Shown here: piece after piece, positions 23,766-29,113 of the stretch | Position numbering within the stretch: the stretch's first letter is position 1 | Layout: the number at the start of each line of letters is the position of its first letter | Source of the DNA: Abditibacterium sp. | Lineage (GTDB): Bacteria; Armatimonadota; Abditibacteriia; Abditibacteriales; Abditibacteriaceae | Reading direction: 5' to 3' | Assembly (NCBI GenBank): GCA_965246885.1 | Contig: OZ251992.1 | Coordinates: 1,696,001-1,760,000 of the forward strand | DNA length: 64,000 bases | The notes under the pieces: model-generated | What the model was told of the DNA's origin: nothing | Databases searched by the model: none | The model's input: the letters and a program-made list of their open reading frames with translations, nothing else | Position numbers and translations under genes: made by a program

Positions 23766-25049
23766 ATGAAAGCCGAAATTTTATGCGTCGGGTCGGAGCT
23801 ATTGCTCGGACAAATCACCGACACCAACGCCGTCTATATGGCGCAAGGGCTGGCGCGCGCGGGCGTTGACTTGCACCGCAAAACCACCGTCGGCGACAAC
23901 TTGGAGCGCATCGCGGGCGCCATTAACGCTTCCTTAGAGCGCGCCGACTGCCTCATCGTCACCGGCGGCCTCGGCCCCACCACCGACGATCTGACCCGCG
24001 AAGCCATCGCCAAAGCCTTGGGCGTCGAGTTGGACTACGACGAACGCTTGGCCGCGAACTTGAAAGAAATGTTCGCGCGGCGCAACTGGAGCATCAGCGA
24101 CACCTTCCTGCGCCAAGCGTATTTGCCGCGCGGCACGAAAGAACTCCCCAACCCCGTCGGCACCGCTCCCGGCGTGTGGTTCGACGGCGAATTTAATGGC
24201 CAGCCCAAGCTCATCTTCGCCGTGCCCGGCGTGCCGCGCGAGATGAAAACCATGTTCGACGACACCATCATCCCCGCTCTGTTAGAAAAAAGCGAGGGCG
24301 AACGAATGATCATCGTGTCGCGCGTGTTACGCTCGTTCGGCATCGGCGAATCCGCCTTGGCTGACCCGCTCGAAGACATCCTCACCAGCGCCGAGAACCC
24401 CACCGTCGCGCCGCTCATCTATGGCAATACGGAAGTCCACTTGCGCTTGACCGCCAAGGTGCGCACTGAAGAAGAAGCCACGCACTTGCTCGACCAGATG
24501 GAAGACCGCATCCGCGCGCGCGTCGGGCAATACATCTTCGGGCGCGACGACCAAACCTTGCCTCAAGTCGTCGTTCACGCGCTCACCGGCCACAACGCTA
24601 CCCTTGGCGTCGCCGAATCGCTCACCGGCGGCATGTTAGGTGCCTTCCTCACCGAAGCGACGGGCGCCAGCCGCGTCTTTATGGGCGGCGTCGTCTCCTA
24701 CGCTCCCGGCCTGAAAATCCAAGTGCTGGGCGTGCCCGAAGCGGAGATCGAATCGGACACCGTCGTGTCGGAGGTCGTCGCGCGCGCGATGGCGCTGGGC
24801 GCGCAAAAGCTGATGAACACCAGCTACGCGCTTTCAACAACGGGCGAGGCTGGCCCCGACTCGGCAACGGGCGCGCCCGTTGGCACCGTCTACCTTGGCC
24901 TCGCGCTTCCCAACCAAACCGCCATCGTTGAAAAGCGCGAGTTTCACGGCGACCGCGAAGCCATTCGCCGCCGCGCTTCAATGGCTGCCCTCGACCTTTT
25001 GCGCCGCCACTTGCATGACAACTTGGAGGTCGAGGCGCAAGCGAAATAA
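23766..25049 (+). CDS. cinA: Competence/damage-inducible protein CinA (with NMN deamidase domain)
   Basis: GSELLLG..DTN, GGLGPT.DDLT, PGVPREM and AESLTGG. Confidence 0.93.
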   Translation: MKAEILCVGSELLLGQITDTNAVYMAQGLARAGVDLHRKTTVGDNLERIAGAINASLERADCLIVTGGLGPTTDDLTREAIAKALGVELDYDERLAANLKEMFARRNWSISDTFLRQAYLPRGTKELPNPVGTAPGVWFDGEFNGQPKLIFAVPGVPREMKTMFDDTIIPALLEKSEGERMIIVSRVLRSFGIGESALADPLEDILTSAENPTVAPLIYGNTEVHLRLTAKVRTEEEATHLLDQMEDRIRARVGQYIFGRDDQTLPQVVVHALTGHNATLGVAESLTGGMLGAFLTEATGASRVFMGGVVSYAPGLKIQVLGVPEAEIESDTVVSEVVARAMALGAQKLMNTSYALSTTGEAGPDSATGAPVGTVYLGLALPNQTAIVEKREFHGDREAIRRRASMAALDLLRRHLHDNLEVEAQAK

Positions 25050-25140
25050 GGCGTCGGACTTCGGGCTTCCCCGGTTGCCTTGGCGCAGTGTTTCGATTCA
25101 AGGGGCACCGGAGGCAGTGCTCAGCCTTCTGTACTATTCG

Positions 25141-25593
25141 ATGAAGCGATGGATGCGCGCGTGGGTGTTGCTAACGGCGTTAGTCGTTGGAGTTTCTCCG
25201 CGCGTCGTCGTGGCGGCGCTGTGTTGCACGGCGACGCCGCACATGGCCAAAGCACCGTGCGCGTGCTGCCACAAAACTTCCGTTTGCGCCCTCCCGTCTC
25301 CACTTTTGTGGGTGAACGCGCCTTCTCCGTTTGTTCAAGAACAAACGTTTGAAGCGCCGCTCGCGTTGCCCGTTTCGCCAAGGAGTTGGGAGCAACCCGC
25401 GCTGCAATGGCCGCGAATGTGGCCCGATGCGCCGCCTTTGTTGCCGCCGCCTGAGCAAGGGCGCGGGAGCTTTTCTTGCCGCGCGCCACCCGCTTTGGCC
25501 CCGGCCCGAATGGGCTTCGCACCGCAAGAAATCTACACCCAAAGGAGGGAAAATCCATGCAAAAACTCATTGCCACCTGCGTCCTCGGCTTGA
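25141..25593 (+). CDS. Putative DUF2946-like exported Cys-rich leader peptide with RAPP motif
   Basis: N-terminal hydrophobic segment, LCC...PCACCH...C, Pro-rich linker and RAPP at 25480-25491. Confidence 0.55.
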   Translation: MKRWMRAWVLLTALVVGVSPRVVVAALCCTATPHMAKAPCACCHKTSVCALPSPLLWVNAPSPFVQEQTFEAPLALPVSPRSWEQPALQWPRMWPDAPPLLPPPEQGRGSFSCRAPPALAPARMGFAPQEIYTQRRENPCKNSLPPASSA

Positions 25594-25700
25594 CGCTCGC
25601 CGGAAGCCTCGCGGCTGCCGTCGCGCAAAGCGGCTCATGCTGCAAACCCGGCGCTCCGTGCTGCGCTCCCGGCGCGCCCTGTTGCCCCAAGGCCAAATAA
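25557..25700 (+). CDS. Small secreted Cys-pair repeat peptide, 47 aa
   Basis: AAAGGAGG RBS; sequence MQKLIATCVLGLTLAGSLAAAVA-QSGSCCKPGAPCCAPGAPCCPKAK; followed by a terminator. Confidence 0.75.
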   Translation: MQKLIATCVLGLTLAGSLAAAVAQSGSCCKPGAPCCAPGAPCCPKAK

Positions 25701-25705
25701 CTCCG

Positions 25706-25741
25706 ACGCCCCGCTTTCAACTGAAAGCGGGGCGTTGTTTT
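25706..25741 (+). terminator. Intrinsic terminator
   Basis: acgccccgctttca-ac-tgaaagcggggcgt followed by tgtttt. Confidence 0.75.
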
Positions 25742-28700
25742 AGCCGTCTAAGTCCCCTGCCAAGGCAATGGCGCTTTGGGCGCCCTCTTTGTCCAGCCCA
25801 ATGGCTTTAATGCGCGCTTCGACGGCTTGCACGTCGCCCGTGCGTCCGGCTTCTTGCAAGCGTTTGCGCAGGCCCAACAGCGCCGCCGCGCGCGCGATTG
25901 GGTTCCAACTGGCGCCGGACAACTGCGTATAAAGCGCTGTTGCCTCGTCCGTTTTTCCGCCCGCCCACAGGACTTTGGCGCGCGCCCAAGCGATGCTTTG
26001 GAAACCGTCGGCATCTACTTCCGGCGCGGTTTGGGCAAAGCGGAACGCTTCGCCCGACCAGAAATCGGCTCCGGCTTTATCTCCTCCCGCGAGGGCATCG
26101 AGCGCCAAACGGCGCCACGTTTCGACCGCGAAATCGAGTGTCTGCGCGGCGCGGGCGCGCGCTTTGGGGTCGGCGTCGCCATTGGCCAGCGACAGCGCGA
26201 GCGAGGGTTCGCCGCCTTGCGTGGCGACCAGTTTTTGCAGCAAGTCGCGCCGCGCGTCGGGCGAGAGGGTTCGGGCATCGAGCAAAAGCAGGCGCGCGCG
26301 CATTGCCCAGAACGGGTCGTCGCCGTCGGCAAGCGGTTTCAGCGCGGCCAAGGCGGGCGACTGCGCGCGCGTGGCGCGTTCGAGTTCGGCGTCGGCGGCG
26401 GGCGGGGCGCCGGGAACGGCGATTTGCGCGCTCGCCAAGTCGAGGCGCGCGAGGGCAAGGGCGGCGCGCGCGACGATGGCGGCTTTGGTGGCGTTCCCGG
26501 CATCGCCTGCGCCCGCGAGGGCATCGAGATTTTTACTAATGGCGGGCATCATCGACGAGCCTGCCGCCCTGCCCGCCGCACCGCTCAGCAGGGCGGCGTT
26601 CGCGTCGAGGGGCCAGCGCTCACCCGCGACGCGCACCAGCAGTTGCGCGCTCGTCATAGCGTCTTGGCGGCGGTCGGCGCCATTTAGCAGTGCGGCGACG
26701 ACGCCCGCTTCGTCATCGGCGCCGCGCGCGACATCGAGTAGAATGGCCCATTGCCGCGCGGCGCCAGCCGGGTCGCCGCTTCCGTCGAGCACACGCGCCC
26801 ACACTTGGCGGGCGGCGAAGACAAGGGTGGCGCGGTCGCCATCGTCGGGAGCGGAATCGAGCGCCCGCCGCGCCTCGCCCAGCGCCTTTTGACGGTCTTC
26901 GGGGGCGGGTAGGGCATTCCAGCCAATGGCCGCGACCGCCGCGAAATCGGGGTCGGGGTTGCCGTCCAAGCGGGCGAGTGTGGCGCGCGCGCCGTCATCG
27001 GCGTTGGCCATTTCGGTCGGGTCGAGGACGCCGCCGATGCCTGTCGCGCGCTGGATTTGAACGAGGGCTTTTTGTAGCGTGTAGAAAGTGGCGTCGTCAG
27101 CCCCGGCGATGGCTTTGTCCAAAAGAGCGTTCGCTGTCCTGAACAAGGCGTTGCGGCGGTTGAAACCGGCGGTGTCGCTCGGCGCAAGCAAGAACGCCTG
27201 CGCCACCAAGGTTTCGGCGCGCTTGCCCGCCCAGAACGGCACGTCGGGAAAGCGAGCGTAGCCCGCGCTTTGTGCATCAGCGATGGCTTCGCGCGTGCCG
27301 TAGGCTGCTTGAAAGGCGAGCGCGAGGCGCAGGTCGGAGTCTTTGGCCCCAGTCGCGCGGGCGCGGTTGAGCAGGGGAACGCGCAGGGCGTCAACTTTTC
27401 CGGCTTTCTGGAAAGCATCGAAAAGGATGTCCTGCGCGTTGGCTTTTTGGGTGTCGAAAGCGAGGCTTGTGCTCCACCGACTCCACGCGCCCAGCGCCGC
27501 ACCCCCATCGCCCGCGCGCGCGGCCAAGGCGATGAGGTGCGCCCGCGCTTCGTTTTGAACGCCTAAGGAACTGGACTTTTCGAGGGCTTCCCAAAGCGGC
27601 TTGGCTTCTTCGCCGCGTCCGGCGCGTTCGAGGCCGCGCGCGAAGGCGGCTTGAAAGGGCGCCGCCGTGAAAGCGCCCGCCGCGAAAGTGCCCGTCGCCG
27701 CCTTGCCCGCGCGCAGGTCGAGCAGAACGCGCGCGAGCCTCGCGGTTTCGCCATCGCCGGTGATTGTTGCGCCGAGGGTTGCGGCTTCGTCGGGAGTGGC
27801 GGACAGCGCCATGTTTTCGGCGGCTTTGACGCCGACCGCGCGGGGGGTGTCGGAGGAAAGCAACTCTCCCCACACGCCGCGCGCGCCCGCGATGTCTCCA
27901 GACGCGCGCAGGGCGAGCGAGAGGGCGAGCGTGCGATCGGGTTCGCCGCTTTTGGTGGCGGTGCGGGCGTCGCGCAGCGCGGCAACGCGGTCGGCGCGCA
28001 GGTCGTCAACGGGCAGGGCCGACCACGCGAGGTCGGCCTCGGACAAATGCGGCCCCAGCGCGGCGAGTTCGCGGACAGCGCCCGCAGTGGCGCGGGTGGC
28101 GACCAAGACATCGAGCGCCGCGAAGTGCGGGGCGGTGGCGGTCGGTTTGCCCCCGGCGGCTCTTTTCCACAATGCCAAGGCGCCCTCCGCGTCGCCGCCC
28201 GCGCGCCACAGAGCGAGTCCGTGATTCCACTGCTCGTCGGGCGAAGCGTCGGTGTAAGTGGAGGGCGAGCGCAAAGCGGCGTCCTCGCGGATGGCGCCGT
28301 TCGCCACGTCGGGCAGGGCGAAGGTGCCATCGGGGAAAGCGTCGGTGCGCGCTTTGAGGGCATAGGCGAACGAAACCCCATCCCCGTCGGAGTCCGCGCG
28401 AAGCGGGAATTTGCCGTCGAGGGCGTAGGCGGCGCGTAGCAGGACGTTTCGTCCATCGTCGAAGTCGGTGCGGACGTTGCCCGCCAGTTGGACGCGCGCG
28501 GGAAAGGCGCGCACGCGCACTTTGGAGGCGACGTAATACGCGCGCCGCTCGTCGTTGCCGAGCAAAACACGGTCGCGCACGCGGGTGATGCCTGCACCCG
28601 GCGCGGCGACGAAACCGGTGGCGCCGGTGAAAGCGAAGTTGAGCGGCCCGCCCGACAATAGGCCCGCGCCGCGCCACCATTCGCGCGCAATGTTGGCGTT

Positions 28701-28955
28701 TAATACCGCGACCCGCCGGAAGCGGGTGTCGTAGGTTTGAGTGGTGTCACCACTCGCCACAACGGTCTGCGTCGGAGTGCCCGCGCCGTCGAGCACCTCG
28801 ATTTTCAAGGAGTCCGGCGGCTGAAAGAACAACCGCGCCCGAACCGGGGCGCCATCGCCGCTTTGAATCAGGGTGCCCTCGCAACGAGGCAATTGCGCGC
28901 GCGCCGGAAGCGCGAGCAAGAGGCAGGCAACGGTGTAAAACAGAGGAAAACGCAT
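25740..28955 (-). CDS. Large secreted protein with a LolA-like N-terminal region and TPR-like helical repeats
   Basis: Signal peptide MRFPLF...ARA-Q, FQPPD.LKIE and Ala-rich helical repeats. Confidence 0.65.
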   Translation of the reverse strand: MRFPLFYTVACLLLALPARAQLPRCEGTLIQSGDGAPVRARLFFQPPDSLKIEVLDGAGTPTQTVVASGDTTQTYDTRFRRVAVLNANIAREWWRGAGLLSGGPLNFAFTGATGFVAAPGAGITRVRDRVLLGNDERRAYYVASKVRVRAFPARVQLAGNVRTDFDDGRNVLLRAAYALDGKFPLRADSDGDGVSFAYALKARTDAFPDGTFALPDVANGAIREDAALRSPSTYTDASPDEQWNHGLALWRAGGDAEGALALWKRAAGGKPTATAPHFAALDVLVATRATAGAVRELAALGPHLSEADLAWSALPVDDLRADRVAALRDARTATKSGEPDRTLALSLALRASGDIAGARGVWGELLSSDTPRAVGVKAAENMALSATPDEAATLGATITGDGETARLARVLLDLRAGKAATGTFAAGAFTAAPFQAAFARGLERAGRGEEAKPLWEALEKSSSLGVQNEARAHLIALAARAGDGGAALGAWSRWSTSLAFDTQKANAQDILFDAFQKAGKVDALRVPLLNRARATGAKDSDLRLALAFQAAYGTREAIADAQSAGYARFPDVPFWAGKRAETLVAQAFLLAPSDTAGFNRRNALFRTANALLDKAIAGADDATFYTLQKALVQIQRATGIGGVLDPTEMANADDGARATLARLDGNPDPDFAAVAAIGWNALPAPEDRQKALGEARRALDSAPDDGDRATLVFAARQVWARVLDGSGDPAGAARQWAILLDVARGADDEAGVVAALLNGADRRQDAMTSAQLLVRVAGERWPLDANAALLSGAAGRAAGSSMMPAISKNLDALAGAGDAGNATKAAIVARAALALARLDLASAQIAVPGAPPAADAELERATRAQSPALAALKPLADGDDPFWAMRARLLLLDARTLSPDARRDLLQKLVATQGGEPSLALSLANGDADPKARARAAQTLDFAVETWRRLALDALAGGDKAGADFWSGEAFRFAQTAPEVDADGFQSIAWARAKVLWAGGKTDEATALYTQLSGASWNPIARAAALLGLRKRLQEAGRTGDVQAVEARIKAIGLDKEGAQSAIALAGDLDG

Positions 28956-29022
28956 GAATGGAAGCGCAGTTTGGATAAACCGACTCGCCCCAGAGTTGCA
29001 AATCCTCGCAAGACAGACGTCC

Positions 29023-29113
29023 GCCATCCAGTCACGGGCTTCTGTCACCCTGTGACACAGGCCCGTGACTGAGCGGCGCGCACGCGTGACTGGGCGGCGC
29101 GCACGCGTCATTG
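29023..29113. repeat. Degenerate 21-bp tandem array B
   Basis: gtgactgagcggcgcgcacgc and gtgactgggcggcgcgcacgc (20/21 identical) with in-phase degenerate flanking units. Confidence 0.7.

Follow-up and report, generated by a model that had tools for sequence, protein, structure and literature searches.

A locus in the genome of Abditibacterium sp. raises the question of whether a ribosome-arrest leader may control the synthesis of a tiny, cysteine-rich peptide with a predicted export signal. The locus lies in the 64,000-nt stretch of DNA that was analysed (contig OZ251992.1, positions 1,696,001 to 1,760,000; hereafter the window), where an ORF with an export-like N-terminus, a Cys cluster and RAPP, a known ribosome-stalling motif, precedes an ORF of 47 codons. 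The earlier note on this DNA had proposed a metal-sensing translation-arrest circuit with a metallothionein-like peptide as its target. With slightly better than even confidence, comparison with related genomes and characterized systems leads us to read this copy as a CutF-like arrest switch, in which the stall turns expression on and would induce a predicted exported metallothionein-like peptide.

The unit consists of two genes and occupies about 640 nt between cinA and a convergent minus-strand gene (Table 1). The leader, RAPP, the Shine-Dalgarno sequence (SD), the 47-aa ORF and the hairpin were all re-found where the earlier note had placed them, and its description of the leader was accurate: the N-terminus is basic and then hydrophobic, and C28-C29, C40-A-C42-C43-H and C49 are followed by a Pro-rich linker and RAPP. 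The distance of "about 50 nt" that it gave between RAPP and the ribosome-binding site (RBS) of the peptide measures 49 nt to AAAGGAGG, and its (CCxPGAP)n repeat consists of two full units and one partial unit. The terminator that it saw after the two genes is a hairpin of 17 pairs (−29.6 kcal/mol, z −6.4; 0 of 200 shuffles equally stable) followed by UUUU; a promoter/terminator pattern scan missed this hairpin and found no sigma-70 promoter. Export signals of leaders and peptides were judged by eye. The convergent gene (25740-29111, stop at 25740) encodes a large, Ala-rich protein of ~1.1 kaa whose N-terminus is export-like and which neither Pfam nor NCBIfam matches; it directly adjoins cinA in genomes G012 and G002.

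Table 1. Features of the two-gene unit and its surroundings, in window coordinates.
Feature	Positions	Strand	Remarks
cinA, context gene	23769..25049	+	NCBIfam PRK00549 above cut-off
Possible ECF-sigma-type promoter, GGCAC-N16-CCTT	25104..25128	+	7/9 match to GGAAC-N16/17-CGTT
Leader ORF, 150 aa, predicted exported arrest peptide	25141..25593	+	ATG 25141, stop 25591-25593
Sec-type signal-like segment of leader, ~aa 1-26	25141..25218	+	by eye
Leader Cys cluster C28, C29, C40, C42, C43, H44, C49, putative sensor	25222..25287	+	
RAPP motif, leader aa 114-117	25480..25491	+	PPP..G..FSC just before, as in orthologues
mRNA helix, FSC-RAPP codons (arm 25472-25479) with 25524-25531	25472..25531	+	ends ~10 nt before SD
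33-codon read-through tail of leader	25492..25593	+	private to this genome
Shine-Dalgarno sequence AAAGGAGG	25541..25548	+	49 nt after RAPP
47-aa peptide gene	25557..25700	+	CCKPGAP-CCAPGAP-CCPKAK
Intrinsic-terminator-like hairpin (25704-25741) plus UUUU	25704..25745	+	between peptide gene and convergent gene

Leader profiles, both of which included the window sequence, found members in 22 of 26 family genomes (18 in a first round) and in none of 374 other genomes of the phylum. The exported, Cys-bearing R[AGS]PP leaders probably form a set restricted to one family, the Abditibacteriaceae. Conserved leader-peptide pairs, for which the earlier note had proposed a search, do exist in relatives: of 34 related leaders, 17 stand before a small peptide rich in Cys (6-17 Cys), and with the window included 18 of 35 complete leaders precede such a peptide of 38-86 aa at 43-291 nt, the gap being 43-111 nt in most pairs. 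The script found 19 pairs, of which L134 was dropped as a shadow ORF; the peptide of L143 has no clear signal. Left out of the 35 were the broken or truncated leaders L144 (G023:C9:133438-133940), which precedes a CusB-like gene, and L226 (G024:C364); L222 (G019:C194) matched in two pieces. Apparent ATA starts occur in the G015 peptide (L035), behind a strong SD, and possibly in the G005 leader (L209).

From the side of the peptide, a search of 60 relatives gave clear homologues in four, three of them with an upstream exported Cys-bearing ORF that ends in GRAPP plus 2-4 residues. The peptide profile matched in 5 of 26 family genomes, with one further match elsewhere in the phylum that covers the signal part only. 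The fourth of the clear homologues (G006:C24) has no leader, which counts against a CutF-like switch. Positional orthologues of the unit lie downstream of cinA in G001, G005, G006 and G007, all of the same genus (25 genomes inspected), and the gap from RAPP to the peptide ATG is 65 nt in the window and 64 nt in G001.

Conservation of RAPP and of the cysteines, on which the earlier note had staked its reading, was also found. The R, P and P of the motif are invariant among the relatives' leaders while their codons vary synonymously, and the C29 column is invariant in 27 of 27 aligned leaders. By their substitution pattern, the leaders of the relatives are under purifying selection at the protein level (dN/dS 0.18-0.43 in five of five close pairs). 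The five cinA-linked orthologues share invariant W8, A13, L14, S19 and P20; three orthologues at this locus end in PPPP..FG..FSC-RAPP like the window leader, and G007 ends in SSG-RGPP. The spacing from the CxxC (C40-A-C-C43) to the Arg of the motif is 70 in the window leader and 76-79 in three orthologues, and 23 of the 27 aligned leaders have a distance of 71-84 from the last CC to this Arg, which counts for a CutF-like switch.

The characterized systems are compared here on the basis of the available parts of the cited papers. CutF, from the Rhodobacter capsulatus cutFOG operon, and the CutF-like proteins (PMC9973294; bioRxiv 10.1101/2025.02.05.636593) resemble the present leaders in their small size, in export (judged by eye for the present leaders), in combining a Cys motif with a proline-rich arrest motif, in lying directly upstream of a same-strand target, in the SD-masking structure predicted for many relatives and in the occurrence of sister leaders before copper genes. 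Unlike CutF, the window leader has no DUF2946 match, reads 33 codons past RAPP, is followed by a little-masked SD and likely has an ECF-type promoter, and its target is a predicted mature Cys peptide of 24 residues rather than an oxidase or pump. The filter published for CutF-like proteins (PMC9973294) takes in the window leader by size and position (≤150 aa and a same-strand gene within 1000 nt; here 150 aa and a 37-nt overlap). Its PP motif in the last 15 residues is present in 34 of 34 relatives; the RAPP of the window lies outside these residues, and a PP in the tail passes by accident. For the Sec/SPI signal peptide that the filter also demands, the window leader has the signal-like segment recognised by eye. 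The available supplementary text of that paper contains no mention of this lineage or of metallothionein.

CruR of Bordetella pertussis (Bp2923, DUF2946) likewise has an export signal, a CxxC and RAPP in the first gene of its unit (PMC9426467). Its CxxC-RAPP spacing is 45 ± 2, against 70-79 here, and in DUF2946/CruR the motif stands at the C-terminus, whereas 33 residues follow it in the window leader and 1-7 in 34 of 34 relatives. Arrest in CruR is relieved by copper and acts through Rho over a 162-bp gap (PMC9426467), whereas the gap is mostly 43-111 nt in the present family and we infer induction. Membership in DUF2946, suggested by the earlier note, did not hold: PF11162 does not match the window leader at E ≤ 1, has 0 matches in the window's genome (G000), and matches 2 of 27 leaders weakly (best E 0.11). 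The ApdA/ApdP class (PMC12992588; PMC10951233) has a RAPP/RGPP core in a secreted protein of 130-180 aa, and this core is conserved at the protein level in the family of the window leader; here, in contrast to that class, a Cys cluster is present and the target is a Cys peptide, not a sec/yidC gene. The best reading is that the window leader, which has no Pfam or NCBIfam match, would work like CutF/CruR without being a DUF2946 member, and that its family, unmodelled by Pfam and NCBIfam, extends the functional kin of these two proteins.

The targets of sister leaders bear on the signal that may be sensed. The copper link that the earlier note had named for RAPP leaders is present in this family, where sister leaders (in G006:C25, G005:C307, G003, G009, G010, G011, G012 and G020) head operons for CusB-type adaptors with cupredoxin/HMBD/YtkA domains, RND pumps, OEP and sulfocyanin/cupredoxin proteins. 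These operons often stand back-to-back with genes for a metal-sensitive repressor, an HMA protein and an HMA P-type ATPase. The neighbour scan covered 43 proteins hand-chosen from 24 regions, and some neighbours were assigned by likeness, not by domain scan. Two peptide pairs (G014:C2 and G003:C1) sit among P-type ATPases and CDF/RND genes, and the pair of G015, which metagenome locus L068 resembles, is followed by a cupredoxin protein. Most peptide pairs, the one in the window included, have no evident metal neighbour, which counts against a CutF-like switch.

The window's genome contains a second leader (G000:C1, minus strand, ~376788-377264; L236:6788-7265), which has 148 aa, two CxxC motifs and the ending PPRGPPAL (RGPP plus 2 residues). 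Its GTG start stands 6 nt after a perfect GGAAC-N16-CGTT, and the leader lies before the gene for an exported protein of 626 aa that matches Copper-bind weakly (E 0.008); G020 (L164) has a comparable layout. In copper islands, the first gene after several leaders (L127, L137, L142) is an exported ORF of 103-117 aa with a four-Cys C-terminal motif, without annotation or Pfam match (e.g., L148:7224-7574, L160:6718-7026). A second leader subfamily (L151:11495-12025, L155:1464-1985, L223, L229, L231) has 174-181 aa, with a signal, CCC, His and ..ARPRxPD..GRAPP; one of its members precedes an OEP gene.

The putative target has a signal-like segment at aa 1-23 (AVA before Q, by eye) and a predicted mature part of 24 aa with the pattern CC-x5-CC-x5-CC. 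Six of these 24 residues are Cys and none is aromatic; F, W and Y are absent from the Cys-rich part in 11 of 11 peptides examined. The profile is matched by 93 representatives at E ≤ 0.001, and all 43 aligned homologues retain the six Cys, having been selected by a profile that already contained these residues; dN/dS was 0 and 0.2 in two peptide pairs. The 47-aa peptide has no match in Pfam, NCBIfam, a PDB sequence search or Foldseek against the PDB, the ESM Atlas gave only unnamed clusters (below 0.9), and the AlphaFold model is of low confidence (pLDDT 58.5). Across the cinA locus the Cys count varies (6, 9, 9, 10, 11), and this variation favours a metal-thiolate role over one disulfide fold.

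HMA-like proteins of metagenome loci carry the CC repeat as well, C-terminally, and it recurs there in longer proteins built of repeats; the one HMA-like fusion scanned reached 24.6 bits against a cut-off of 24.8. At loci of other lineages (L106:2540-2899, L118:2477-2920, L121 upstream of 3001, L103:2293-2835, L051 upstream of 491, L060/L070 at ~2200-2560), CC-repeat peptides and proteins follow different leaders, likewise small and Cys-rich, that have endings of their own (..FRLKxDLRI, ..SLKEDLRL, ..YLLFCVLLI, ..FHPPRIA, ..YEFICVYLI), none of which has a Pfam match among those scanned. Myxobacteria-like loci (L040:3001-4369, Labilithrix; L073:2902-4198; L116:2935-3705) encode a CCxPGAxCC peptide that is followed immediately by a Sigma70_r2 (ECF-like) gene and one for a membrane protein without a family match, and in L122 such a peptide precedes YHS, HMBD and OEP genes.

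In its very small size, abundance of Cys, lack of aromatic residues and variable Cys count, the peptide resembles the metallothioneins SmtA and MymT, and exported Csp1 offers a precedent for exported Cys-based Cu(I) storage (PMC7558416). The peptide has no sequence match to any of these three and differs from them in its Sec-like signal, vicinal CC repeats, lack of His and putative translational control by a leader; Csp1, moreover, is a Tat-exported four-helix bundle (PMC7558416). Bufferins, which are small Sec-exported Cys peptides that buffer periplasmic copper (PMC11626156), require an MNIO enzyme (PF05114). This enzyme is absent from G000 and, with a single exception, from the 26 other family genomes, so that a bufferin precursor was ruled out. 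A literature search largely confined to open-access papers returned no description of these leaders, of a Cys peptide placed behind an arrest leader or of an unmodified metallothionein exported through Sec.

Metal is one of two signals that such a switch could monitor. The same device might instead watch periplasmic thiol-redox state or oxidative folding, with the peptide serving as a three-disulfide mini-protein or a sacrificial thiol buffer, a reading that we consider rather unlikely, though it is the best placed of the alternatives. The Cys number is even in the 6- and 10-Cys types, and the genome has a VKOR gene and a Thioredoxin_4 (DsbA-like) gene (DsbB was not found in G000), so exported thiols may be oxidised. 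Redox genes follow two pairs, AhpC-TSA in G013 and DsbD in G026, and RAPP leaders are reported to be enriched before DsbA/thioredoxin genes (PMC12992588). The promoters point the same way. The pattern G[GC]AAC-N16/17-CGT[TGA] occurs in the 70 nt before 14 of 26 leader starts, in 12 cases at a distance of 8-17 nt, against 17 of 4004 genome ORFs (one leader was dropped, its flank being too short). It resembles the Mycobacterium tuberculosis SigH promoter of heat and oxidative stress, whose regulon includes dnaK and moeB1 (PMC4803200). On G000:C1, with ORFs identified by eye, GGAAC-N16/17-CGT sites precede dnaK (2592320, +), a moeB-like gene (1344266, −), clpS (1042932, −), an exported thioredoxin-like gene (2875774, −) and a merC-like gene (690788, −); a SigH/SigR-like regulon in this genome is possible. 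Set against the redox reading are Cys counts that vary and can be odd (9, 11, 17) among orthologous or sister loci, the predominance of copper-export proteins among the scanned targets other than peptides, and the origin of the promoter pattern, which was picked by eye from these same related sequences.

The window's own promoter candidate stands 12 nt before the leader ATG, and matches of its quality (7/9) precede 59 of 3000 random ATGs. Both of its mismatches fall in core positions, and the stricter pattern does not match it; G001 and G007 have the same score and the same 12-nt gap. As the window leader has no SD and the promoter candidate lies so close to its ATG, the transcript would have a short or leaderless 5' end.

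The most conspicuous peculiarity of the window copy lies beyond RAPP. The earlier note had observed that the leader continues about 33 codons past the motif and overlaps the start of its target. This is present in the sequence, where the tail runs over the SD and ATG of the peptide and stops 37 nt inside its gene, but it is not a feature of the system, the tail after R[AGS]PP being 1-7 codons in 34 of 34 relatives. Since all of these stop so early, the tail is, on comparative grounds, a lost stop or an assembly error, and a conserved design was ruled out. The orthologues at the cinA locus have stops at codons +3, +4, +4 and +6 after the motif, and at +6 the window has CGA where G001 has TAA. 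The frame of the peptide is open from RAPP onward; a frameshift that fuses leader and peptide is unsupported, as all three frames are open there and the relatives have stops. Arrest should be possible despite the tail, which in itself should be no bar to it, because RAPP also arrests in reporters fused to lacZ (PMC12992588). The motif arrests in many N-terminal contexts (PMC12992588), which counts for a CutF-like switch. With the early stop missing, ribosomes that escape arrest would cross the SD and start of the peptide, and the switch may be leakier in this genome.

The predicted mRNA structure separates the window from its relatives in a similar manner. When 60 nt of upstream sequence are included, all 14 relatives have an SD that is mostly paired (unpaired 0.02-0.35), and that of the window is open (0.69). 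A ribosome modelled on RAPP lowers the cost of opening the RBS by more than 2.5 kcal in nine of the 14 relatives, which counts for a CutF-like switch, and produces no drop in the other five, which counts against it. In the window no such relief is predicted, and the opening cost is 6.0-6.8 kcal whether or not a ribosome sits on RAPP. In the comparison with ordinary genes, the window has a cost of 6.2-6.8 kcal and a drop of 1.5-2.1, and the cinA orthologues have 6-12 kcal and 0.5-6. Opening costs in ordinary genes are similar to those of the leader units (40 of 43 AGGAG control genes; median 8.5 kcal, quartiles 6.6-10.9), and their median drop with the upstream region covered is 0.7. Five orthologues share a consensus helix that joins FSC-RAPP to the bases shortly ahead of the SD, with one double-sided change and little covariation; it is also predicted in the window, at a z of only −1.3. 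In G001, G005 and G006 a CCTCC anti-SD within proline codons pairs with GGAGG, and this element is eroded in the window. Judged by the pairing and opening-cost figures and the control genes, SD masking is plausible for the leader family and weak for the window copy, where it counts against a CutF-like switch.

The switch might thus be relaxed or decaying in this genome, with its stop lost, its anti-SD eroded and the peptide largely constitutive, or the missing stop might be an assembly error; we regard this as unlikely. The tail is unique among the 35 leaders, a single base change would turn CGA at +6 or TTG at +2 into a stop, and the peptide RBS is open. Among genomes with both flanking genes, the closest by cinA identity (G012 and G002) lack the unit. 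The window leader is also strongly diverged, and its weak similarity to its relatives counts against a CutF-like switch as well: a protein-database search returned no homologue at E ≤ 10, a search of the family genomes gave weak matches (best E 0.001), mostly with internal stops, leave-one-out profiles did not recover it among 33,977 six-frame segments of its genome, and BLASTP against the G007 orthologue was not significant. It nevertheless outscores all of ~500 shuffles against both profiles, and against shuffles its alignment reaches a z of 5.9-6.7 with three orthologues and 2.1 with G007, so we read it as a strongly diverged orthologue of the cinA-locus leaders. Against decay, it retains the signal-like segment, the Cys cluster, the spacing, PPP..G..FSC-RAPP and the FSC-RAPP helix, a 21-nt block at RAPP is identical to that of G001, and the reading frame is intact over 117 codons.

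That RAPP stands here by chance, in a frame of GC-rich DNA that is irrelevant or does not code, is very improbable and already largely refuted by the existence of orthologues: R[AG]PP has 1163 six-frame matches in the genome, and the leader has weak codon bias (GC3 0.68 and GC2 0.61, against 0.80 and 0.45 in cinA) besides its lack of an SD and of database homologues, but the motif recurs at the same position ahead of a peptide of this kind at 17 related loci, four of them at the same chromosomal site, and the leaders of relatives are under purifying selection. A filter for an upstream Cys motif, a short tail and an SD-ATG ORF within 120 nt passed only this locus among the 1163 matches; it was designed around this locus and overlooked the second leader of the same genome.

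Under the CutF-like arrest switch that we favour, the leader would be exported co-translationally through Sec, and copper or thiol stress would make its ribosome stall at RAPP, raising translation of the peptide. With RAPP at the peptidyl-transferase centre, the Cys cluster, 64-86 residues from the Arg, would lie just outside the membrane, where metal binding or failed disulfide folding could weaken the pull that releases the arrest. Stalled and queued ribosomes would then melt the FSC-RAPP helix and cover the C-rich anti-SD, freeing the RBS of the peptide, whose mature form would act as a small thiolate metal sink outside the cytoplasm. In this genome, ribosomes that escape the arrest would run on across that RBS.

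A bolder and tentative extension is that the peptide may be the first representative of a widespread class, namely unmodified metallothioneins that consist of CC-x5 repeats and are exported through Sec. These would have been coupled independently in several phyla to different stalling leaders (R[AG]PP; ..FHPP..; ..LKxDLRI), giving a two-tier circuit of an ECF stress promoter and a periplasm-sensing arrest. Here the loss of the stop might have rewired the output, with arrest holding leader ribosomes off the start of the peptide.

The unit would extend copper-type arrest leaders such as CutF and CruR to a target of a new kind: a tiny peptide, predicted to carry an export signal. Targets of this size would be skipped by annotation-based surveys, one of which, in its available part, excluded unknown downstream products (PMC12992588). 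Natural variants within the family, with an early stop or read-through, with a leader or none and with 6-17 Cys, offer ready comparisons of how arrest translates into output. If the peptide binds metal in the periplasm, it would be an exported metallothionein.
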